Positions 2,289-64,000 of a stretch of DNA of 64,000 bases are shown here, one piece after another. The stretch is taken from NCBI GenBank assembly GCA_024275195.1, contig JAJRZP010000139.1, positions 5,645-69,644 of the forward strand, written 5' to 3'. The notes beneath the pieces were generated by a model. That model ran no database searches, was not told the origin of the DNA, and saw only the letters and a list, made by a program, of their open reading frames with translations. Made by a program: the position numbers and the translations under genes. The stretch comes from Chloroflexota bacterium (lineage in GTDB: Bacteria > Chloroflexota > Dehalococcoidia > Lucifugimonadales > Lucifugimonadaceae). How positions within the stretch are numbered: the first letter of the stretch is position 1; every line of letters starts with the position of its first letter.

Positions 2289-2424
2289 TCGGTATGGGAA
2301 CTCCCGGTGCTTCGGCGTTGTTCGTGGCTATGTTACGAAACCGGGGATAGCTTACCTGTGACTGATCAGGTTTGGAGTATTTAGGGAATCAGTCGATAGT
2401 AAGAATACGCTCTCAACCTCGCAG

Positions 2425-2468
2425 CCCACCACCGAACATCCCTGCTCAGGAGTCGGGCTTTCGAACGT
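2425..2468 (-). repeat. intergenic conserved element, copy D (minus-strand sense)
   Basis: The minus strand reads ACGTTCGAAAGCCCGACTCCTGAGCAGGGATGTTCGGTGGTGGG. It matches copies at 55071, 56460, 61748 and 40664, and lies 136 nt upstream of the amidohydrolase_2 start at 2288. Confidence 0.6.
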
Positions 2469-36138: not shown

Positions 36139-36257
36139 GATTTCCCGAGCGTAGTCGAGGGGCCTCTCAGGGGTTAACTCTCGACACTCGCCAACGACGA
36201 TTCTCAGGCAATTGAACGTCGTATCCACCGAGATCCCTCGACTACGCTCGGGAAATC
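36139..36257. repeat. perfect 23-bp inverted repeat with a 73-nt spacer
   Basis: The left arm GATTTCCCGAGCGTAGTCGAGGG (36139-36161) is exactly complementary to the right arm CCCTCGACTACGCTCGGGAAATC (36235-36257). It lies in the intergenic region between the GH15 gene and the dehydratase gene. Confidence 0.8.
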
Positions 36258-40652: not shown

Positions 40653-40663
40653 CCTGTACACCT

Positions 40664-40713
40664 ACGTCTCGACCGCAGCGAAAGCGAAGTCGATAGACCT
40701 TCGGTGGGGGCGG
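40664..40713 (+). repeat. intergenic conserved element, copy F (divergent centre)
   Basis: ACGTCTCGACCGCAGCGAAAGCGAAGTCGATAGACCTTCGGTGGGGGCGG shares the 5' ACGTC[CT]CGAC and 3' CTTCGGTGGGG flanks with the other copies. Its centre is a different hairpin. Confidence 0.5.
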
Positions 40714-40817
40714 TGAACGATTACTCCCTTCTCGAAACTCATAGCAAGACACCCGTCATCGCCGCGCCTACAATCCACCACACCAAACTCCGCCTCATCG
40801 AACAGGATCCACCCAGA

Positions 40818-53767: not shown

Positions 53768-54952
53768 ATGAAGATAAAACACGTTCGCTGTATTCAGCTA
53801 AACACTCCGGTCGTCAAACCCGGGCCCAACACGCGCCCCGGCTGGAACTCCTACGCCATTCGTTCAAGGCCCATAGCGAGATTCTCGAACTACACGCGTG
53901 TCGATGGGAACCAACCCGGCACTATTGGAAAAGTCTGGGTTCAAATCACTGCTGACGACGGGACCTATGGGCTTGGCTCGTGCGCTCTCGGCCCAATGGC
54001 GGCACCGCTGATCGACTACTTTATTGCGCCGATGATAGAAGGACGCGATCCCTTCGCAATCGAACTCTTGAACGACCTCATATGGCGTTCACACGAGACT
54101 TTTCAGGGAGGCATCGCTACCGCGGCACAGAGCGGAGTTGATCTGGCACTCTGGGATCTGAAGGGTAAGCTGCTGGAACGACCCGTCTACGAGTTGATCG
54201 GTGGGCCGAGCCACAAGTCGGTCGACCTCTACGCGACGGGTGACGATCTCGAGTGGATGCGTGAGCTTGGGTTCAAACGGTTCAAAATCAGCAACCCGTT
54301 CTTCTATGAGCAGGGATCTGAAGGCCTGGCTCAGCTTGAAGAACATGTCGCACATGCCCGTGATGTCGTAGGGAACGATGCAGAGCTGATGATCAACCCG
54401 GTGATGTCGTTCAACGCCGATATGGCGCTCCGAGTCGCAGAACGGCTCAGACCGTACAAGTTGCGGTGGCTCGAAGAGCCACTTCCTCCGTGGGATCTGG
54501 AAGGGCACAAAGAACTGAAACGATCCATGACCTGGACCGCCCTCGCAACTGGCGAACACCACTATGGCCGTAAGTCGTTCCAGCAGTTAATCGCCGCCCG
54601 CGCCGTCGATATCGTCCAGCCCGATATCGAGTGGACTGGAGGATTCTCAGAGACGCTTAAGATTTACACCTACGCCGAAGCGGCAGGAATTGAAACGATC
54701 ACTCACATGGGCGGCAATACCGCCTGGGGACAACATTTCGCGTATGCAATGCCCGAATCATCGCAGGCGGAGTGGTTCATGGACACCGATGTTGGCCAGC
54801 CCGTTGCCGACAAGCTGATGCCGGGAGTGCCTGCGATGAAAGACGGCAGGGTAACTCCTTCCGACGCACCGGGGTTCGGTCTGGAAATTCCCGAAGACTG
54901 GATCGTACCGTGGGACTACGCAGGTCAGAAACGTGCGGTTTACACCACCTAG
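53768..54952 (+). CDS. enolase-superfamily dehydratase, L-rhamnonate dehydratase-like (paralogue 2)
   Basis: The ATG lies 1 nt after the upstream stop and gives MKIKHVRCIQL. The motif set matches 52597..53766 (KLRWLEEPL, TGEHHYG, VQPDIEWTGG). Confidence 0.88.
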   Translation: MKIKHVRCIQLNTPVVKPGPNTRPGWNSYAIRSRPIARFSNYTRVDGNQPGTIGKVWVQITADDGTYGLGSCALGPMAAPLIDYFIAPMIEGRDPFAIELLNDLIWRSHETFQGGIATAAQSGVDLALWDLKGKLLERPVYELIGGPSHKSVDLYATGDDLEWMRELGFKRFKISNPFFYEQGSEGLAQLEEHVAHARDVVGNDAELMINPVMSFNADMALRVAERLRPYKLRWLEEPLPPWDLEGHKELKRSMTWTALATGEHHYGRKSFQQLIAARAVDIVQPDIEWTGGFSETLKIYTYAEAAGIETITHMGGNTAWGQHFAYAMPESSQAEWFMDTDVGQPVADKLMPGVPAMKDGRVTPSDAPGFGLEIPEDWIVPWDYAGQKRAVYTT

Positions 54953-55070
54953 ATTGGGTGTGATGACCGACCAGCCGTCAAAATTCAGTATCTATACCCG
55001 TCGAACGGATTGATTCAGTCACCTTTCGCCCCTTCTGCAACTCAGAATCTCCGAACCATCCAACCCCATC

Positions 55071-55109
55071 ACGTCCCGTCTCCTGTGCGGAGAGCTTCTG
55101 TGGCTGTGG
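55071..55109 (+). repeat. intergenic conserved element, copy A
   Basis: ACGTCCCGTCTCCTGTGCGGAGAGCTTCTGTGGCTGTGG lies 137 nt upstream of the ATG at 55247. Confidence 0.55.
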
Positions 55110-55246
55110 CACTCAGGCCAAGGGTGAACAACGCCCAATCCAGCCAACGTCAGCCGACCGGTCAACCCGAGCAACACTTGCAACGCGCCATATCTGATCT
55201 AAACTCCCGGTTGCCGAATCATTCACAAACAAACCCGAGAGACAAC

Positions 55247-56431
55247 ATGAAAATCACAGCTGTAGATACATTCGTCGTCGATGCCGGATGGAGGCCCTGG
55301 CAATACGTTGCAGTCCGAACAGATGAGGGACTGACCGGATACGGCGAAATGTCAGATGGACGAAATCCATATGGCATCGTTGGGGCAGTTACCGATTTTC
55401 TGCCAGTACTCGAAGGGCGGGATCCGCTCGCTGTCGAGATGCGCTACTGGGACATGTATCGAATGGCGAGGCAATCACCTGGTGGAATCGCGGCAAAAGC
55501 GATTGCTGGGATTGAACTCGCACTTTGGGACATCAAGGGCAAGTCGCTTGGTGTGCCTGTCTACTCGCTGTTCGGCGGCCCAACTCGACAGAGTCAGCAA
55601 GTCTACTGGTCACACTGTGGAAGCTCTCGTGTTGCTCAGTCAGAACTGATCGGAGTCCCACCACTCGATTCGTTCGAGGCAGTGACCGAGCTTGGTGCGG
55701 AAGTGCGTGAAAAGGGATTCAAGGCCCTCAAAACAAACATCAACTACCCCGGACCAAACGCTCATGCCTATGTCGGTGGGTTTGGAACTGGCTCGACCGA
55801 CCAGAATGTGACCAAGGAAACCCTCGATCACGTTGAAAAGTACATCGGGGCGTTCGAAGACGGCACGAAGGGAGAAGTACAGATAGCACTCGACCTCAAC
55901 TTCCACTTCAAGCCACTGGCAGCACGGCTGATCTGCAACGTGATGGAGCAGTTCAACACCATGTGGGTCGAGATTGACATGTACGAGCCGGCGGGACTCG
56001 CCGAAGTCAAGGCTGGGACTATGGTTCCGATCACCTCGGGCGAAAACCTGTTCGGCATCCGAAACTACAGGCCGTACTTCGAGAATCGTTCGATGGACAC
56101 CGTGATGATCGATGTACCGTGGAACGGGTTCTCACGTTCCAGAGACATCGCAATGCTTGCTGAAAGCTACGAACTCAACATCGCACCACACAACTACTAC
56201 TCCCACCTGTCAACGATGCACTCGCTTCACCTCTGTGCGACCGTCCCGAACGTACGAATCATGGAAGCTGACATCGATGACGTCCCGTGGAAGGACGATC
56301 TAACTGGCGGCGCACTCGACTACACCGGAGGGGAACTACAGATACCAACCACCCCCGGCTGGGGAGTTGAACTAAACGAAGATGTAGCCCGGAAACACGT
56401 CTGGGAGCCAGGCCGAGGCCCGGGGTACTAG
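55247..56431 (+). CDS. enolase-superfamily acid-sugar dehydratase (galactonate-dehydratase-like)
   Basis: ATG 55247 gives MKITAVDTFVV, the family-typical N-terminus. IELALWDIKGKSLGVPVYSLFGG is present. The 79 upstream codons of the track ORF look non-coding and contain repeat copy A. Confidence 0.88.
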   Translation: MKITAVDTFVVDAGWRPWQYVAVRTDEGLTGYGEMSDGRNPYGIVGAVTDFLPVLEGRDPLAVEMRYWDMYRMARQSPGGIAAKAIAGIELALWDIKGKSLGVPVYSLFGGPTRQSQQVYWSHCGSSRVAQSELIGVPPLDSFEAVTELGAEVREKGFKALKTNINYPGPNAHAYVGGFGTGSTDQNVTKETLDHVEKYIGAFEDGTKGEVQIALDLNFHFKPLAARLICNVMEQFNTMWVEIDMYEPAGLAEVKAGTMVPITSGENLFGIRNYRPYFENRSMDTVMIDVPWNGFSRSRDIAMLAESYELNIAPHNYYSHLSTMHSLHLCATVPNVRIMEADIDDVPWKDDLTGGALDYTGGELQIPTTPGWGVELNEDVARKHVWEPGRGPGY

Positions 56432-56459
56432 GACCAATGGCACAGCGCCAAAGCCTCTC

Positions 56460-56497
56460 ACGTCCCGACTCCTGCGGAGGGATCTTCGGTGGGGAGG
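56460..56497 (+). repeat. intergenic conserved element, copy B
   Basis: ACGTCCCGACTCCTGCGGAGGGATCTTCGGTGGGGAGG lies 43 nt upstream of the ATG at 56541. Its 28-nt core differs from copy C at one position. Confidence 0.7.
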
Positions 56498-56540
56498 AAG
56501 CGGGGTGTAGCGGCGAAACCGCAGCACACAAAACCAACCC

Positions 56541-57362
56541 ATGAACATCATCGACGCACACCCGCATATCTATTCCGATGATCGATTCAAATACCCGACC
56601 ATCGACGATCCATGGAACCCGGGTGAGCCTGCAACTGTCGAAGACCTGAAGACGAAGATGGACGAATCAGGTGTCGGGCGGGCGGTTTTCATCCAGACCA
56701 GCACGTTCTACGGTCACGACAATCGATACGTGATGGATTCGACTCACCAGCACTCGGAATGGGCTACCGGTGTCGTAACTCTCAGTCCCGACGATCCACA
56801 GCACCTCGAAATTCTCGAAGATGCCGTGACCGATTTCTCTGTGCGGGGATTACGTGGCACTACCGATCGAAACGGCAAGCTCGACTCACCGAACGTGAAA
56901 CGGCTCTGGTCGAAAGCCAGTGATCTCGGAATTGTGGTGAACTGCATGGTCATGGACAACCTCGACCGAGTTTCAGAAATAGAAATGCTGGCAGGCGAAC
57001 TGGATGACCTGCAAATCGTCATCGACCACTGCTTCATGCTCAACGCATTCCGCAACACAGAAGAAACGCTGCTCGCCCTTGAAAGATTGGCGAATCGGCC
57101 GAACATTCATGCCAAGCTCACCAGTGGAACCCATGGATCTGCACGGGTCTATCCGCACGAGGACATGCACACCCCGCTAAAGCGGGTGATCGAGGCGTTT
57201 ACTCCACAGCGATGCGTCTGGGGCTCGAACTTCCCGAACGCTCTCTGGTCGAAGGGCACGAGCTACGCCCAGAATCTCTCGCTGTTCACCGACGAACTGG
57301 GACTTTCGGAGTCAGACAAGGCCGCGATTCTGGGTGGAACAGCCGAACGGCTCTGGTTTTAG
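56541..57362 (+). CDS. amidohydrolase_2-family hydrolase (sugar-lactonase-like)
   Basis: 273 aa with N-terminal MNIIDAHPHIY. It belongs to the same family as 1437..2288 and sits inside an acid-sugar cluster. Confidence 0.85.
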   Translation: MNIIDAHPHIYSDDRFKYPTIDDPWNPGEPATVEDLKTKMDESGVGRAVFIQTSTFYGHDNRYVMDSTHQHSEWATGVVTLSPDDPQHLEILEDAVTDFSVRGLRGTTDRNGKLDSPNVKRLWSKASDLGIVVNCMVMDNLDRVSEIEMLAGELDDLQIVIDHCFMLNAFRNTEETLLALERLANRPNIHAKLTSGTHGSARVYPHEDMHTPLKRVIEAFTPQRCVWGSNFPNALWSKGTSYAQNLSLFTDELGLSESDKAAILGGTAERLWF

Positions 57363-57443
57363 GCCGATCAGCGTATAATCACCAGCTTTTCCAATTGCTG
57401 AAGGGTTAGGTGCTCCATCGATATCGAACTACTTCGATTTTCC

Positions 57444-57884
57444 TTGTCAACTGAATTGGAAATGCTCGCCAGAATGGCAATTGGCGCCATCGTAGGCGGA
57501 ATCATCGGGTTTGAAAGGCGGCGGGCGGGCCGACCTGCCGGTATACGCACGATGGCACTCGTCGCTATGGGTGCAGCAGCATTCACTGTCGTTTCTATCT
57601 TCGGATTCGAAGGCGAAGAAGGCCAACTGCGTGATCCTGCCCGAGTCGCCGCACAGGTTGCCACCGGTGTGGGCTTCATCGGTGCTGGGACTATGATCCG
57701 ATCAGGAAAAATGGTCCGTGGACTGACTACCGCAGCGAGTCTCTGGCTATCGGCAGCATTAGGGGTCGCGGCAGGGGCTGGTATGTACGTTTTCGCCATT
57801 GGAGGGGCTTTTATTGCCCTGGCAATACTTGCAGGACTCCCTCGCCGGGTGGAATCTGACGAACTCGATGAATTTTCAGAGTAG
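57444..57884 (+). CDS. mgtC: MgtC/SapB-family membrane protein
   Basis: AIGAIVGGIIGFERR, GIRTMALV and QVATGVGFIGAGTMIR are characteristic. The start is uncertain (TTG 57444 or ATG 57462). Confidence 0.88.
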   Translation: MSTELEMLARMAIGAIVGGIIGFERRRAGRPAGIRTMALVAMGAAAFTVVSIFGFEGEEGQLRDPARVAAQVATGVGFIGAGTMIRSGKMVRGLTTAASLWLSAALGVAAGAGMYVFAIGGAFIALAILAGLPRRVESDELDEFSE

Positions 57885-58001
57885 TAAAACCATCCACCAT
57901 TCGCGCCAAGTAGAATTTCATACCACCATCGCAATCTAATAGTTGCGAATCCCTGCTTCTGCCAGTCACACAGCTCATTCTGGTAAAAGCGGCCCTGCTA
58001 C

Positions 58002-59354
58002 ATGACCACCACCCAGCCTCAACAAAAACCAGCAATGAAGCGTCCACTTGCTATTCACGTAATGGCGAAACCCAGCGGCGCCATCTGCAACATCGATTGC
58101 ACCTACTGTTTCTATCTTGAGAAAGAGAAGCTGTATCCAGACAAAGCTCGTGGGTCGTGGAAAATGGGCGACGAAGAACTTGAGGCGTACGTAAAGCAAT
58201 ACATCGAAGCGAACGACATCCCGGTCGTCAACTTCGCCTGGCAGGGTGGCGAGCCAACGTTGCTGGGCCTCGACTTCTATCGGAAGGCGATCAAGCTTCA
58301 GAAGCAGTACGCAGGTCGAAAACAGATCACAAACGCCTTCCAGACCAACGCCATTCTGATCGACGACGAGTGGGGAGAGTTCCTGGCAGAAGAAAAATTT
58401 CTGGTCGGCGTTTCAATCGACGGGCCTGAGGATATTCACAACCGATACCGGGTCGGCCGCGGCGGTGAGCCGACCTGGGACAAGGTTATGGCAGGAATTG
58501 AAGTGCTGAAAAAGCACAAAGTCGAGTTCAACACCCTGACCGTGCTCCACAAACACAACACCGATCATCCAAAAGAACTCTACGAATTCCTGACGCGTGT
58601 GGTCGGTAGCCATTTCCTGCAGTTCATCCCGATCGTGGAGCGCGTCGCCGACAAGTTGCCCGCCCATTTCCTGCAGCTTGTTGGACCAGAGTTTCGTGAT
58701 GGCGCAACCGTTACCGAATGGTCTGTCGGATCTGAGCAATATGGCAACTTCCTGAATGGAATATTCGATCAGTGGGTTCGAAAAGACATCGGTCAGTACT
58801 TCATCCAGATATTCGATACGACGCTTGCCGGCTGGATGGGGCAGAATCCTGGTTTGTGTATATTCGCTGAGACCTGCGGCGACGCAATGATCATCGAGCA
58901 CAACGGCGATGTGTACTCGTGCGATCACTACGTATATCCCGAGTACAACCTCGGAAATGTCGCCGACACGACGATTCGCGAAATGGCCGAAAGTCCTGAG
59001 CAACGCAAGTTCGGAAAAGACAAGCGAGACACACTACCCGAGTACTGCCGTAGTTGTGAATTCCGGTTCGCATGCAACGGCGGCTGCCCAAAGCAGCGGT
59101 TCACAAAAACTCCAGATGGCGAAGACGGTCTCAACTACCTTTGCGCTGGTTACAAGAAATTCTTCAGCCACACCGAGCCTTACATGAAGGCGATGGTCAG
59201 CGAACTGAGAAGTGGGCAGCCAGCCGCAAACATCATGGCAAAGGCTGGCGCAATCCCAGCGATGTCACCAGACCCCTACGCCGGAGTAGGCCGCAACGAC
59301 ATGTGCCCCTGTGACAGCGGCAAGAAGTTCAAACGCTGCCACGGCGTGGCTTAG
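58002..59354 (+). CDS. anaerobic sulfatase-maturating enzyme (radical SAM, SPASM domain) with C-terminal SEC-C motif
   Basis: CNIDCTYC radical-SAM cluster, FAWQGGEPTL, auxiliary-cluster cysteines (CDHYVY, CRSCEFRFACNGGCPK) and a C-terminal CPCDSGKKFKRCHG. Confidence 0.9.
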   Translation: MTTTQPQQKPAMKRPLAIHVMAKPSGAICNIDCTYCFYLEKEKLYPDKARGSWKMGDEELEAYVKQYIEANDIPVVNFAWQGGEPTLLGLDFYRKAIKLQKQYAGRKQITNAFQTNAILIDDEWGEFLAEEKFLVGVSIDGPEDIHNRYRVGRGGEPTWDKVMAGIEVLKKHKVEFNTLTVLHKHNTDHPKELYEFLTRVVGSHFLQFIPIVERVADKLPAHFLQLVGPEFRDGATVTEWSVGSEQYGNFLNGIFDQWVRKDIGQYFIQIFDTTLAGWMGQNPGLCIFAETCGDAMIIEHNGDVYSCDHYVYPEYNLGNVADTTIREMAESPEQRKFGKDKRDTLPEYCRSCEFRFACNGGCPKQRFTKTPDGEDGLNYLCAGYKKFFSHTEPYMKAMVSELRSGQPAANIMAKAGAIPAMSPDPYAGVGRNDMCPCDSGKKFKRCHGVA

Positions 59355-59367
59355 CCACGTTTTCTTT
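59345..59367 (+). terminator. intrinsic terminator candidate overlapping the maturase stop codon
   Basis: CGTGGC-TTA-GCCACG followed by TTTTCTTT. The stop codon TAG lies in the loop and 3' arm. Confidence 0.55.
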
Positions 59368-59580
59368 GAGGACGGACTGGTTAGGTTAAGTGTGTATTGC
59401 CACACCTTACGCGACGTGTCACACCGTATAACCACTGCGTGGAGCCTGCCCGAAACGACGTGGCAATCAGCTTCTGAGAAACCCGTTCCAGTCGAATTCG
59501 TCAACCAATGAACTCACCCGTACCGATCCCTTCTCACCCCTAAGTTCGTCTGGCGAGTTAGAATTCCACGGGCTAATTCA

Positions 59581-60375
59581 TTGCGCCCGACCACCAATCA
59601 CAATTGGGGAGCAACTCCAGTGGAACTCAGAACCAACCGCGCCAGGCAGAAGCTTGCCAACGGCGAAATCGTAACCATCGTAAGTGGCGTAACCCACCCG
59701 GATGACATCGACGCAGTTGGACCGCTCGGGTTTGATGGCATATGGCTCGAAGGTGAACATGGCGCAACCGACGCTGCTGAACTTGGCAACCTGACACGGG
59801 CCTGCGACATCTGGGGCATGACTTCAGTTGTACGAATAAATCTGAATGAGCAGGGCCTTATCTATCGAACGCTCGATCGCGGCGCACAGGCAATCGTCGT
59901 TCCCCATGTCAATAACGCCGCCGAAGCGAGAAACGTTGTTGAGGGCGGTAAGTTCACTCCCAGAGGTAAGCGCGGCATGTTCACCAGCCGTCAGGGGTTC
60001 GGTGTTCCTGACTACTTCGACCGTGCAAACGATGAATCGATGCTCATCGTTCTTATCGAAGACATTATCGCGTGGGAGAATCTCGACGAGATTATCGCAG
60101 TCGACGACATCGACGTATTCTTCGTAGCGCCATCTGATTTTGCGTCGTCGATGGGGCATATGGGCGACCTGCAACACCCAGATGTAGTAGAAAAAATCAA
60201 TGATGCGCTTGCAAGGATCGTTGCATCCGGTCGTAACGCTGGTGCGCTTGCAACAAACGAAAACGTCGCCGCGTACGTAGACTTGGGTGTTAGATTCCTG
60301 ATGACAGGGGTCGGGCCGTGGATCGCCAGCGGTTTCAATCAGTTCGCGGCAAACGCAAATTCTGCGAAAAAATAG
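59581..60375 (+). CDS. HpcH/HpaI-family aldolase (2-keto-3-deoxy-acid-sugar aldolase, RhmA-like)
   Basis: 264 aa, collinear with HpcH/RhmA (LEGEHG, VVRIN, VVPHVNNAAEA, PRGKRG, VLIEDI, FVAPSDFASSMGH). Confidence 0.88.
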   Translation: MRPTTNHNWGATPVELRTNRARQKLANGEIVTIVSGVTHPDDIDAVGPLGFDGIWLEGEHGATDAAELGNLTRACDIWGMTSVVRINLNEQGLIYRTLDRGAQAIVVPHVNNAAEARNVVEGGKFTPRGKRGMFTSRQGFGVPDYFDRANDESMLIVLIEDIIAWENLDEIIAVDDIDVFFVAPSDFASSMGHMGDLQHPDVVEKINDALARIVASGRNAGALATNENVAAYVDLGVRFLMTGVGPWIASGFNQFAANANSAKK

Positions 60376-60435
60376 ACCATTTAGACGTTCACTAAATCTA
60401 CAAACAGATAGAGCACGGAAAAGGGATTCTTCGAA

Positions 60436-61464
60436 TTGAAAAGCGTGATGTCCAAGCGAATGTTGGTTCTGGCGGGAATACTCGCGCTGGTCGTTCTCAG
60501 CGCGTGTCAGGCGGCTGGAAAGAATCCCGACAATGTCGAAATACCCGTTATTCAGGCGACTGTGGATATCTCACTGTGCCAGAACAATACCTACCCTCAG
60601 GGCGCACCGATATTTGAAGACGTAGTGAGCGATCAGCTTACCGGCAACCCGGCGGGGGTCAGGATATTCGATCGCGTAGTTGGTGAAGGGACTTCGCCGA
60701 AGATCGAAGACATGGTGACGGTGAAGTACACTGGTTGGCTTGAAAACGGCTGTATTTTCGACTCTTCCCATGCGCGCGGCGAAGATGCGCAACTGCTCCT
60801 TGTCGCACTAATTCCCGGCTGGCGTGAGGCGATGCTAACGATGGCACCCGGAGGGATTCGTCGAGTCGAGATCCCGCCTGCCCTTGCATACAGGGAACTC
60901 GGTTCACCTCCTGTGATTCCGCCAAACGCAACTCTCACATTTGAAATTGAGCTCGTAGATGTTCTGACGCCCGCACAGGCGGTCGAAACCGCAACGGTCA
61001 TCGCAGCGAACGCGACGCCAACTCCCGTACCCACCGCAACGCCCGAAGGAGGGCCTTTCTTGGCAGATTGTGACAACCCTGGTTACCCGGATTCTGCTCC
61101 ACGATACGATGATGTAACTGATGATCAGTACGTAGAGCAACCAACCGGTATACGAATTTTCGATCTCAGAATCGGTGACGGATCAACTCCCACTCCGAAC
61201 AACACGGTCGAAGTGCAATACACGGGCTGGCTCGTCTCCACTGGCTGCGTGTTCGACGCTTCGTATATCGCAGGGCAGTCGATCTCTTTCCCGATTGAGG
61301 GTGTAATCGCTGGCTTCCGGGATGCCATTCTTGGAATGAATGTCGGCGGGCAGCGCCGGGTCTACATCCCCGCAGATCAGGGATATGGAGATCAGGGCGC
61401 AGGAGGGGTAGTTCCACCAAACTCCGATCTCGTATTCGACATTGTCCTTGAGGGTCTTCGCTAG
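60436..61464 (+). CDS. lipoprotein with two FKBP-type peptidyl-prolyl isomerase domains
   Basis: Signal peptide with lipobox (VLSAC) and two FKBP cores (VTVKYTGWLENGCIFDSS...; VEVQYTGWLVSTGCVFDAS...), each ending with LxFxIxL. Confidence 0.88.
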   Translation: MKSVMSKRMLVLAGILALVVLSACQAAGKNPDNVEIPVIQATVDISLCQNNTYPQGAPIFEDVVSDQLTGNPAGVRIFDRVVGEGTSPKIEDMVTVKYTGWLENGCIFDSSHARGEDAQLLLVALIPGWREAMLTMAPGGIRRVEIPPALAYRELGSPPVIPPNATLTFEIELVDVLTPAQAVETATVIAANATPTPVPTATPEGGPFLADCDNPGYPDSAPRYDDVTDDQYVEQPTGIRIFDLRIGDGSTPTPNNTVEVQYTGWLVSTGCVFDASYIAGQSISFPIEGVIAGFRDAILGMNVGGQRRVYIPADQGYGDQGAGGVVPPNSDLVFDIVLEGLR

Positions 61465-61747
61465 TACCGAAGGCACCCTTTCTCCGACATGTGGCGTTCG
61501 GCTGAATCGCTGAGTTCCAACCGGTGTTTTAGCCCCCTTCCTTCGGGAAAAGGTTCGGGATTGTGCCCCAAGCATGGGTGGTCAAGTGCGGATGCACGCC
61601 CGGCAAGTAGCGCCAGATTGCAACGCACTACCGAGTAACCCTAAGACGCCCAGAACCTATCGATCACCCGCGATCAAGTGCGAACGTACACTCAGCCTGA
61701 ACGCTCAACACCCAACTCACGACACCGCAAAACCCTTCAACCAAAAA

Positions 61748-61788
61748 ACGTCATCCCGACTCCTGTGGAGGGATCTTCGGTGGTGTGG
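61748..61788 (+). repeat. intergenic conserved element, copy C
   Basis: ACGTCATCCCGACTCCTGTGGAGGGATCTTCGGTGGTGTGG lies inside a 690-nt non-coding gap, 365 nt upstream of the FGGY kinase start. Confidence 0.7.
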
Positions 61789-62153
61789 TGTGGTGCGCCC
61801 CTGAGCCACCTGCCTCGCACTTCGCAACATGCCCCGAGCAGAACCGAAACCCACCACTCTGAGGTTCCCAAAGGACAGCGAGAAATCTCAACTGACGACG
61901 ACGCAAACACCTCCTCCAGATTCTGGCCGATGAATCAGGAATGAGAAAGTTGCGAACGATCATTGAGTGATAAAATCTGTTCTCCACTCCCAGATTTCTA
62001 ACCGCCTCATATCTCTGCGGCAGGGCAAGGTTGCCGGTAGTTTCGATTGGTCAGCAGAATCCATGATTCAAAAACTCACCACAATCGCCCTCGCCCTTGT
62101 CGGTTTCACTAAAACGGTCGCATGCACGTTCTCCCGCTCGATAAGGTAGACAC

Positions 62154-63614
62154 ATGCCCACTCACTACCTGTCCATCGACGTTGGATCGACATCCGTTAC
62201 GTCGGTAATCATCGATATCGAAGCTGGGTCGGTGGTCGGATCATCCAGTGCAGCCAACACTTCCGAGATCACGTCGCCACAGGATAAGAAAATCGGGCGG
62301 TCAGAGTGGAATCTCGAACTTATGACCGCACTTGCCGTCGAAAATGCAGCCGGTCTCATCGAGCGAATAAAAGTCCAACCTGCAGCAATCGGAATTACCG
62401 GACAGCAGCAGGGACTCCAGCTTCTGGACGATGATCTAAGCACGGTCGGATGTTTTATCTCCTGGCAGGACCAGAGATCGCAGGACCGAATAGACGGAGA
62501 GAGCCAGACATTCCTCGAGGCCATGGGTCGACTTGGAGGGGCGGTTGTAGAAGAAAACGGGCTTCCCGCATTCGAAAATACCGGTTGCCCGATAGTCACC
62601 GGATACACCGCTCCAAATCTCTTCTGGCTCAAAGTCAACAAAGAACTCCCAAAAAACGTTCACGGCACCACAGCCCCAGAATTTGTCGTCTCAAGATTGA
62701 CTGGTACACGACCGGTGACCGACCCAACTGACGCGGTGAGCTGGGGTGTCTACGATCTCAACCAGTTCGACTGGAACTACGATCTGATCGATTCTCTCGG
62801 CCTGAATCGATCTCTATTCTCAAATCTCGCCGCATCCTGCACACCCGCAGGAAGCCTCAACAAGGCAATGGCTGAGAAACTGGGCGCCAGTGCTGGCATT
62901 CCGGTATCGGTAGCGTCCGGCGATCATCAGTGCAGCTTCGTCGGCACTGTCGCTGACTACCAGAACACGGTTGCAGTAAATATCGGCACGGGTGGTCAGG
63001 CGTCGGCCTTTGTCAACCAGCCCATCCCGCGTGGCTGGCTCGAACTTCGCCCCTGTATCCAGAGTGGCTACCTGCTCGCAGGAGTTGGTGTGGTCGGTGG
63101 TCGTACTTTCCGCACATTACGAGATTTCTTCAACAATGCCAGCCGGTCAATAGCCGGGTATGAACTCGATCCAGATGCGCTCTACGACAGGCTTGTTGAG
63201 CTTGCCGCCGAAGTACCCGCCGGGGCCGAGGGCGTAACGTTTGAGCCACTTTTCACCGGCTCCCGCCGGAACCCACTGGCGAAAGCAGCGATACGAGAAC
63301 TCACTCCCGGCACTTTCACACCCGGGCACATGGCGCGTGCGCTCTTCGAGGCTATGGCGGCGCAGCTAGCCGATTCGTACCGTGAAGCGGTGAGGTTAGG
63401 CGCGGGTGAACGATCCACGCTGGTCGGATCAGGCAACGCACTCAAGCTGAACCCTGTGCTGCGAGAATCGTTGGAAACGGAGTTCAGCATGCCGATCCAT
63501 ATTGGGCAAAACGATGAAGAGGCAGCCATAGGCGCTGCGTTGTGCGCCGCGGTTGCCGATGGTTCGTTCGATTCGATCGCCGAGGCCAGTGCTTCGTTCA
63601 CATCTGGCAAATAA
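62154..63614 (+). CDS. FGGY-family carbohydrate kinase (sedoheptulokinase-like)
   Basis: 486 aa with the N-terminal LSIDVGSTSV ATPase motif, ISWQDQRS, and second-domain motifs GTGGQ and VGSGNA. Confidence 0.88.
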   Translation: MPTHYLSIDVGSTSVTSVIIDIEAGSVVGSSSAANTSEITSPQDKKIGRSEWNLELMTALAVENAAGLIERIKVQPAAIGITGQQQGLQLLDDDLSTVGCFISWQDQRSQDRIDGESQTFLEAMGRLGGAVVEENGLPAFENTGCPIVTGYTAPNLFWLKVNKELPKNVHGTTAPEFVVSRLTGTRPVTDPTDAVSWGVYDLNQFDWNYDLIDSLGLNRSLFSNLAASCTPAGSLNKAMAEKLGASAGIPVSVASGDHQCSFVGTVADYQNTVAVNIGTGGQASAFVNQPIPRGWLELRPCIQSGYLLAGVGVVGGRTFRTLRDFFNNASRSIAGYELDPDALYDRLVELAAEVPAGAEGVTFEPLFTGSRRNPLAKAAIRELTPGTFTPGHMARALFEAMAAQLADSYREAVRLGAGERSTLVGSGNALKLNPVLRESLETEFSMPIHIGQNDEEAAIGAALCAAVADGSFDSIAEASASFTSGK

Positions 63615-64000
63615 CCACTTCTGGGCGCGGCCAGTCGATTCAGGTTAGGTGACACTAACCCACGCCGACTACATTCAGATGCTGCGAGATAGCCAATAGA
63701 CGCCAACTTCTCCCGCCTCCGTTTGCAACACAACCCAACAATCATCATCCTGAGCCAGTCGAAGGGCGACATACCAGTCAACCATCCCTTCCTGCCGTCC
63801 CGTTATGGGAGCACCTCGACTCACTCGAAGGTCTCACCACTCCGCTCAGGTGCGGTAGGTGCGAAGCGCAGCCTGCACAGTCAATCAACCTGAAACACAG
63901 TGCAACCGACTCGGCTCGCTCCAAGCCTGTCTCAGAAAAAGTGACTCGTCACCCGTTCGGCTTGATGACCAGCTTCACGCCTTTGCCTTCGCCCGAATCT

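Follow-up and report, generated by a model that had tools for sequence, protein, structure and literature searches.

Small single-domain GIY-YIG proteins of the Ssn family (cd10448 in CDD) are site-specific nucleases of single-stranded DNA (ssDNA) (Chenal et al. 2025, PMC11893778). As a rule these genes have a hairpin repeat of their own at their flanks, named NTS in Neisseria (NTS-ssnA-NTS) and SRM in general; cleavage takes place on ssDNA a few nucleotides 5' of the motif, neither double-stranded DNA nor RNA is cut, and binding by SsnA depends critically on a C directly 3' of the palindrome (PMC11893778). Cognate cleavage has been proven biochemically in four species, the tested enzymes include those of Neisseria and Wolbachia, and Devosia is among the SRM-rich taxa (PMC11893778). 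The NTS of Neisseria meningitidis is CGTCATTCCCGCGMAVGCGGGAATCYRG, i.e. CGTCATTCCCGCG..GCGGGAATCY, and the published search pattern for SRMs, hand-made from 29 genomes, is HGTCWYN(0-2)YYVSBRHN(0-5)WNVSBRGN(0-2)RNCYNB (PMC11893778). The same kind of repeat had been catalogued earlier as CGTC-tagged repetitive extragenic palindromes (REPs), which include dRS3 and the rickettsial RPE-4/6, were described in five phyla (Chloroflexi not among them), have 8-9 bp stems, 4-5 nt loops and a CCA tail, form mainly head-to-head dimers and lack a transposase (Di Nocera et al. 2013, PMC3733652). Here we analyze a short intergenic element that recurs in a 64,000-nt stretch (“the window”) of the genome of a marine Chloroflexota bacterium of the SAR202 group (assembly GCA_024275195.1, contig JAJRZP010000139.1). 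Our analysis supports, with a probability of about 0.78, that this element belongs to the SRM kind of dispersed DNA hairpin repeats and is the cognate ssDNA site of small Ssn-family GIY-YIG nucleases.

The deciding observation is that inverted copies of the element enclose GIY-YIG genes, together with the co-occurrence of gene and repeat across the genus. A recurring feature of the metagenome loci is a pair of inverted copies, about 400 nt from each other, with an open reading frame (ORF) of 95-120 amino acids (aa) in between. The enclosed proteins are 93-121 aa long and have GIY-YIG (PF01541) as their only significant Pfam domain. This arrangement was found at the metagenome loci L224/L231, L225/L252 and L189 and on the genus contigs G016:C9, G007:C148, G012:C1, G012:C20, G017:C69 and G000:C70, the last belonging to the host genome (G000). 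For the GIY-YIG genes of the genus that are most similar to the query, the order repeat, gene, inverted repeat is seen at L290, L291, L294, L297, L308 and L309, and several further GIY-YIG loci have the repeat on one side only. Counted by genome, a GIY-YIG gene is present in 16 of the 18 genomes with at least eight copies of the element versus one of the 11 genomes with four or fewer (Fisher p = 3.3e-5). Among named proteins, the closest homologues (~50% identity) come from Devosia, Pelagibacterium and others and have GIY-YIG as their single domain; no NCBIfam model matched the SAR202 proteins. The gene of the Devosia homologue has GTCATTCCCGCGAAAGCGGGAACCTC on both sides, the upstream copy fitting the published SRM pattern and the downstream copy being read in the sequence.

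The repeat is restricted to one genus and its copy number is polymorphic. The host genome, a metagenome-assembled genome (MAG) of 2.70 Mb in 171 contigs in which the window corresponds to C120:5645-69644, contains 12-14 good copies, all of them intergenic. A search with covariance model R1, built from an alignment (A1) of 38 copies, gave ~370 matches in 21 of the 29 genus genomes (0-35 per genome); eight genomes have no copy. Outside the genus, a search of 150 genomes representing 88 further genera of the order gave no match. Of 185k species genomes only four, all of them congeners, contain the exact consensus, and no viral contig does. A scan of marine metagenomes added 112 further stretches with the element. 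The sequence-only reading of the window had mentioned a REP-like element as an alternative, and this was right in kind: the copies are scattered over intergenic regions, form hairpins, are specific to the genus and show insertion polymorphism. A second, weaker inverted copy, mostly in tail-to-tail orientation, often lies 7-70 nt away from the first. At one site of the host genome (C98:51150-51435, minus strand) three tandem units of 113-120 nt with one element each follow from ~30 nt past the stop codon of a gene, resembling a variable number tandem repeat.

Four GIY-YIG genes are present in the host genome, on contigs C70, C45, C117 and C56. The C70 gene has inverted variant-type copies of the element on both sides, and the C117 and C56 genes are each enclosed by a different inverted-repeat family of their own, both families being dispersed in the host genome. 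At least three paralogous GIY-YIG genes of this genome appear to have a hairpin family to themselves, which fits a co-evolution of enzyme and site. This also bears on a scenario in which the repeats spread by other means and a selfish GIY-YIG gene entered existing tail-to-tail pairs, using them as its target for homing or insertion. Such pairs without a gene are common (spacers of 7-70 nt), and several GIY-YIG copies are pseudogenes, as selfish genes would be. However, the same architecture goes with proven cognate cleavage in four species (PMC11893778), and the separate repeat family of every paralogue in the host fits enzyme-site co-evolution; we regard this scenario as quite unlikely.

Some further observations concern these genes and their repeats. 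The family flanking the C56 paralogue (C56:5086-5563) has the sequence CCTTCGACTGGCTCAGGATGACA, is unrelated to the element described here and counts 27 copies in the genome at <=4 mismatches (raw count), one of them in the window at 63743-63765 (minus strand). The third hairpin family, GCTGAACTTGATTCAGTATC, flanks the C117 paralogue (C117:2706-3242) and has eight copies at <=3 mismatches (raw count). At L224:2838-3185 and L252:423-788 the GIY-YIG ORF extends across the downstream element, read as its reverse complement, which provides a conserved C-terminal tail (...EPL(V/I)TTEGPSAGVGT); other homologues end at ~95-98 aa. Intact GIY-YIG genes are located at G016:C9:20197-20490, G007:C148:379-654 and G000:C45:1021-1284. 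In-frame stop codons are also found in many of the congeners' GIY-YIG copies.

The anatomy of the element was derived from 150 copies parsed out of 100 fetched loci. It is ~52 nt long and consists, from 5' to 3', of a weak tag YCnAYW (CGTC or CGTCA in the window copies), TCCC, GA, a centre closed by C...G, GA, GGGA, the nearly invariant tail YCTTCGGYGG and a G-rich run of ~15 nt; the sequence beyond the two ends carries no information in these copies. Between the invariant TCCCGA and GAGGGA blocks the centre measures 8 nt in 116 copies, 18-19 nt in 24 and 40-41 nt in two, and the longer centres are themselves hairpins with GAA or GNNA loops, e.g. CCGCAGCGAAGCGGAGTG in the 18-19 nt class. The earlier observation of a centre that varies and still forms a hairpin is therefore true for the whole family. 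The hairpin covaries at two stem pairs. One stem pair is C:G in 119 copies, T:A in 26 and something else in five, both main forms occurring with the same types of centre; at the closing pair 136 copies have C-G and eight have G-C. In alignment A2, 97.8% of the cells pair, and 14 cells show a double change versus 2.3 in shuffled alignments (none of 500 shuffles reached as many); controls with a slid register collapse. The best register is TCCC/GGGA plus tandem GA/GA plus one closing pair, and it performs better than the CTCC/GGAG inner helix drawn from the window copies. The latter is the poorer fit, since the T-to-C change, which is frequent, would disrupt it by a C.A mismatch; variants in its 5' half are also uncompensated. 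An outer CCGA/TCGG helix and a CATCC/GGATG helix were weighed by eye and dropped, the 5' flank varying without compensation. As to the folding strand, the wobble asymmetry amounts to four sense-type versus ten antisense-type single changes, too few to decide. Spaced GG runs are seen in the 3' tail of copy C of the window (61779-61796) and in that of most other copies, e.g. GGTGGTGTGGTGTGG; on the hairpin-bearing strand this G-rich tail might fold into a two-tetrad G-quadruplex.

In its architecture the element resembles the Ssn/SRM repeats. The consensus YCGAYW-TCCC-GA-[centre]-GA-GGGA-YCTTCGG has a palindrome of the NTS type (TTCCC..GGGAA, whose oriented, non-palindromic flanks are CGTCAT at the 5' and TCY at the 3' side), and the window copies carry ACGTC(A)TCCCGA. 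Among them copy C is most like the Neisseria NTS: its sequence ACGTCATCCCGACTCCTGTGGAGGGATCTTCGG shares with it the CGTCA tag, the TCCC/GGGA palindrome and the following TC. A nearly invariant C (0.97) two nucleotides past the SAR202 palindrome may be the counterpart of the critical C of the NTS, although one variable Y stands between palindrome and C. Further likenesses are the many intergenic copies, a copy number that varies between related species, and a ~95 aa single-domain GIY-YIG gene with the repeat on both sides, each homologue having its own repeat variant. With the CGTC-tagged REPs the element shares the palindrome, a CGTC-like tag at one end, a short unpaired tail, frequent dimers and the lack of a tyrosine transposase; it differs in its stem (four Watson-Crick pairs plus GA/GA plus one pair), its centres of 8-41 nt and its dimers, which are mainly tail-to-tail whereas those of the CGTC REPs are mainly head-to-head. 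Judged by sequence, the SAR202 repeat and its Ssn-like GIY-YIG gene are best described as a diverged member of the SRM or CGTC-type family. The sequence-only reading had made its proposal of an undescribed regulatory RNA depend on there being no clear match to a described family, and such a match is now found in the Ssn/SRM system (PMC11893778).

A single-copy enzyme gene between inverted hairpin repeats, with many gene-less solo copies and doublets in other intergenic regions, is also reminiscent of the REP/REPIN systems and their REP-associated tyrosine transposases (RAYTs) (Nunvar 2010; Bertels & Rainey 2011). One might accordingly think of a classical REP/REPIN moved by a RAYT, i.e. an IS200/IS605-type Y1 transposase, or of a miniature inverted-repeat transposable element moved by a DDE transposase; short palindromic intergenic repeats, inverted dimers, clusters, a variable copy number and subfamilies would all be expected of these. 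In sharp contrast, the enzyme enclosed by the repeats is of the GIY-YIG fold, and the genus has no HUH/Y1 transposase: PF01797 (Y1_Tnp, RAYT) is absent from all 29 genus genomes, one of them a single contig, and was matched in control genomes. This absence agrees with the transposase-less CGTC REPs (PMC3733652). The GTAG at the 5' end of the palindrome, a hallmark of REP/RAYT systems, is likewise absent, the flank profile being YCnAYW (CGTC in the window copies), and target-site duplications were not found above the shuffled-pair control. We give this explanation next to no credence.

The sequence-only reading had favoured a structured cis-regulatory leader RNA, similar to a riboswitch, in the 5' untranslated regions of catabolic genes. 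Within the window this looks plausible. All five copies listed there (A, B, C, D and F) face the next gene, 35-365 nt upstream of it, and the gene families given for the downstream genes are confirmed by Pfam: MR_MLE enolase-superfamily genes follow A and F, Amidohydro_2 genes follow B and D, and an FGGY gene follows C. Covariation of the hairpin would also be in line with an RNA. Family-wide, however, the picture is a different one. Among 122 classified copies (gene contexts from crude longest-ORF calls, element read as plus) 63 lie in convergent spacers (52%), eight in divergent, i.e. promoter, spacers (6.6%) and the others between two co-directional genes, 28 in antisense and 23 in sense orientation. 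The leader reading fails because the next gene is co-oriented in only ~25% of the copies, and the link to catabolic paralogues is confined to this window. Compared with the genome background of spacers >= 60 nt (59% co-directional, 24% divergent, 17% convergent), convergent spacers are enriched ~3-fold and promoter regions avoided ~4-fold; an independent set of metagenome copies shows the same pattern of orientation and context. The element is also absent from eight of the 29 congeners and from the orthologous spacer at copy B in the eight relatives that were read. Rfam offers no family either: at the gathering score the window gave only two tRNAs, and positions 54900-62300 remained empty even at E <= 5. 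Orientation, intergenic class, missing synteny and folds no more stable than those of shuffled sequences together contradict a leader RNA, which could by no means be called a probable explanation; we hold it to be very improbable.

The site of copy B illustrates the lack of synteny. Nearly all congeners have its two flanks, where the enolase gene ends and the amidohydrolase gene starts. The spacer between them measures 7-18 nt in four of the eight relatives read and 41 nt in a fifth, and contains longer inserts in the other three. Since none of these orthologous spacers has the element, copy B resides in lineage-specific sequence within the operon. A look-up of the exact protein and a metagenome scan with the B flank both found no strain-level empty site.

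A further possibility is that the main role of the element lies at the 3' end of RNA, as a terminator or mRNA-stabilizing hairpin of the upstream gene, the link to the nuclease being secondary. Classic REPs do stabilize upstream mRNA. The upstream gene is co-oriented in 70% of the copies, with its stop codon <=30 nt from the 5' end of the element in 40% of these, and the median distance to this stop codon is 57 nt versus 122 nt to the stop codon of the antisense gene (Mann-Whitney p = 1e-5). Tail-to-tail pairs between convergent genes, moreover, fold into long hairpins. Several results argue against such a role. Copies in co-directional spacers show no bias in orientation (23 sense vs 28 antisense), the solo hairpin is weak (~ -6 to -7 kcal/mol for the core) and there is no U-tract; the hallmarks of an intrinsic terminator are thus lacking, as the hairpin is no more stable than shuffles and the tail is G-rich, not T-rich. 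The element is also absent from a quarter of the congeners, and SsnA is inactive on RNA (PMC11893778). Taken together, a primary role at the RNA 3' end is unlikely. With regard to the genes upstream, the stop codon is TAG in 55 and TGA in nine of 87 co-oriented genes, compared with ~45% TAG and ~26% TGA among the long ORFs of the genome (crude calls). The idea of a selenocysteine insertion sequence (SECIS) or of stop-codon readthrough was discarded, TGA being depleted upstream of the copies and not enriched. A bias in orientation relative to the replication strand was rejected as well, plus and minus copies being interleaved along the single-contig genome G010.

A number of results weigh against the identification of the element as an SRM-kind repeat with a cognate nuclease. 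The published SRM pattern matches none of the 150 SAR202 copies and none of the window copies A, B, C, D and F; two substitutions would be needed in eight copies, three in 32 and more than three in 110. The copies miss the pattern because of their GA/GA and their different inner stem: where the NTS has CG/CG the SAR202 stem has GA/GA, and the length of the centre is variable. A longer conserved tail, YCTTCGGYGG, precedes the G-rich run, and the repeat tails face the enclosed gene whereas in Devosia the heads do. The host is a member of the Chloroflexota and its genus carries tens of copies per genome (0-35) instead of hundreds. Predicted folding energies of RNA and DNA are no better than those of shuffles, so the case for the hairpin rests on covariation and not on stability. 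In the host genome itself the C70 gene (C70:14888-15112, minus strand) shows a frameshift close to its GIY motif as well as a TGA in frame, and the C45 gene is intact but surrounded by copies that are tail variants. Two incomplete MAGs (G014 and G021) have 8-16 copies and no detected GIY-YIG gene, the nearest solved structures of the SAR202 proteins are UPF0213 proteins, and the gene contexts stem from crude calls.

By analogy with the Ssn systems we infer nuclease activity, a folding strand and mobility for the SAR202 system, and the mechanism would be as follows. When the DNA is single-stranded, during replication, recombination or uptake, one strand would fold into the TCCC-GA-[centre]-GA-GGGA hairpin. 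The GIY-YIG nuclease would bind both this hairpin and the conserved C that follows directly on its 3' side, and its cut would fall a few nucleotides 5' of the CGTCA/CGAYW tag. Copies B, C and D, the pair at 36139-36257 and other solo copies or tail-to-tail pairs would be non-autonomous derivatives that were seeded or are kept by the nuclease, and would relate to it much as REPs and REPINs relate to a RAYT. They would persist where they are least harmful, just past stop codons and between convergent genes, and any effect on the neighbouring catabolic genes would be incidental. A bolder version, which we put forward tentatively and consider rather unlikely, takes the SRM-ssn-SRM unit as an active single-strand mobile element resembling an insertion sequence (IS). 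The GIY-YIG protein would be the mobilizing enzyme, cutting outside the tails-inward repeats and seeding REPIN-like doublets and solo copies, and copies 2-25 nt past the TAG-biased stop codons would have been co-opted as gene-end signals. If true, Ssn systems outside Neisseria would for the first time be given a natural function and a mechanism of mobility, and ssDNA cleavage with a new specificity would be added.

Our results close a false trail: the repeat does not act as a riboswitch-like regulator of catabolic paralogues in SAR202 and is, for that reason, unsuitable for inferring regulons. As an SRM-kind repeat it would extend the Ssn/SRM (CGTC-REP) system to marine Chloroflexota. Surveys based on the published SRM pattern would then undercount the system, because the pattern misses all SAR202 copies tested. 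The GIY-YIG paralogues of the host genome and their repeats would form a compact natural set for studying the co-evolution of enzyme and site, and are candidate sources of new site-specific ssDNA nuclease specificities. In practical terms, the repeats mark variable spacers in otherwise conserved operons, which is useful for comparing and binning SAR202 MAGs.

The copies found in the window are compiled in the table below.

Copies of the hairpin repeat in the window (R1, covariance model; nhmmer, profile search; strands relative to the window)
Feature	Position	Strand	Sequence parts	Support
Variant-type copy, left half of tail-to-tail inverted pair	36139-36175	+	GATTTCCCGA-GCGTAGTC-GAGGGGCCTC...	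read from sequence
Variant-type copy, right half of tail-to-tail inverted pair	36222-36257	-	GATTTCCCGA-GCGTAGTC-GAGGGATCTCGGTGG	read from sequence
Copy A, possible decayed copy	55071-55109	+	TCCCGtCTCCTGTGcgGAGAG--CTTCtGTGG	without statistical support; nhmmer E 7.7
Copy B, main type	56457-56505	+	CACGTCCCGA-CTCCTGCG-GAGGGATCTTCGGTGG + G-rich tail	R1 58.4 bits, E 1.2e-12
Copy C, main type	61748-61796	+	ACGTCATCCCGA-CTCCTGTG-GAGGGATCTTCGGTGG then GGTGTGGTGTGG	R1 63 bits, E 7e-14
Copy D, main type	2416-2464	-	degenerate centre CTCCTGAGCAGGGATGTTCGGTGG	R1 47.5 bits, E 7.8e-10
Copy F, long-centre variant, marginal	40661-40720	+	TCTCGA-CCGCAGCGAAAGCGAAGTC-GATAGACCTTCGGTGG	R1 18.1 bits, E 0.033; nhmmer E 0.52

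All five sequences named in the sequence-only reading (A, B, C, D and F) are present at the coordinates it had given. Of these five, B, C and D are solid (R1 47.5-63 bits), F is a marginal long-centre variant (18.1 bits) and A, which gave no R1 match at E <= 0.05, is at most a decayed relic. The significance of the element lies in the full-length match and not in the short flank motifs that had been singled out as conserved, as these are not above chance in number (TTCGGTGG six times versus 2.9 expected, ACGTCYCG ten times versus 7.9 expected). Copy B starts 25 nt past the enolase stop codon and ends 35 nt ahead of the amidohydrolase ATG, and copy D begins 57 nt past the gcvPB stop codon, ~130 nt ahead of the start codon of its amidohydrolase gene. 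Copy C lies in a 690-nt gap that extends from an FKBP gene to the FGGY kinase gene. Copy F begins 8 nt past the stop codon of an otsA/otsB-like gene, and its centre is like the 18-19 nt class of 24 other copies.

The original list of window copies was incomplete, as it had overlooked an inverted variant pair. A perfect 23-bp inverted repeat at 36139-36257 is a tail-to-tail pair of a variant of the same element. This variant has the closing pair G-C instead of C-G. The left copy agrees in its closing pair with the “type 5” copies and gave no R1 match at E <= 0.05; for the right copy the DNA fold yields CCGA/TCGG plus TCCC/GGGA helices. The enolase/amidohydrolase junction around copy B (window 56432-56540 compared with L037, L038 and L046) is a hotspot of change between species, ranging from 7 nt to >1.3 kb, and in some species coding-looking sequence is inserted there.

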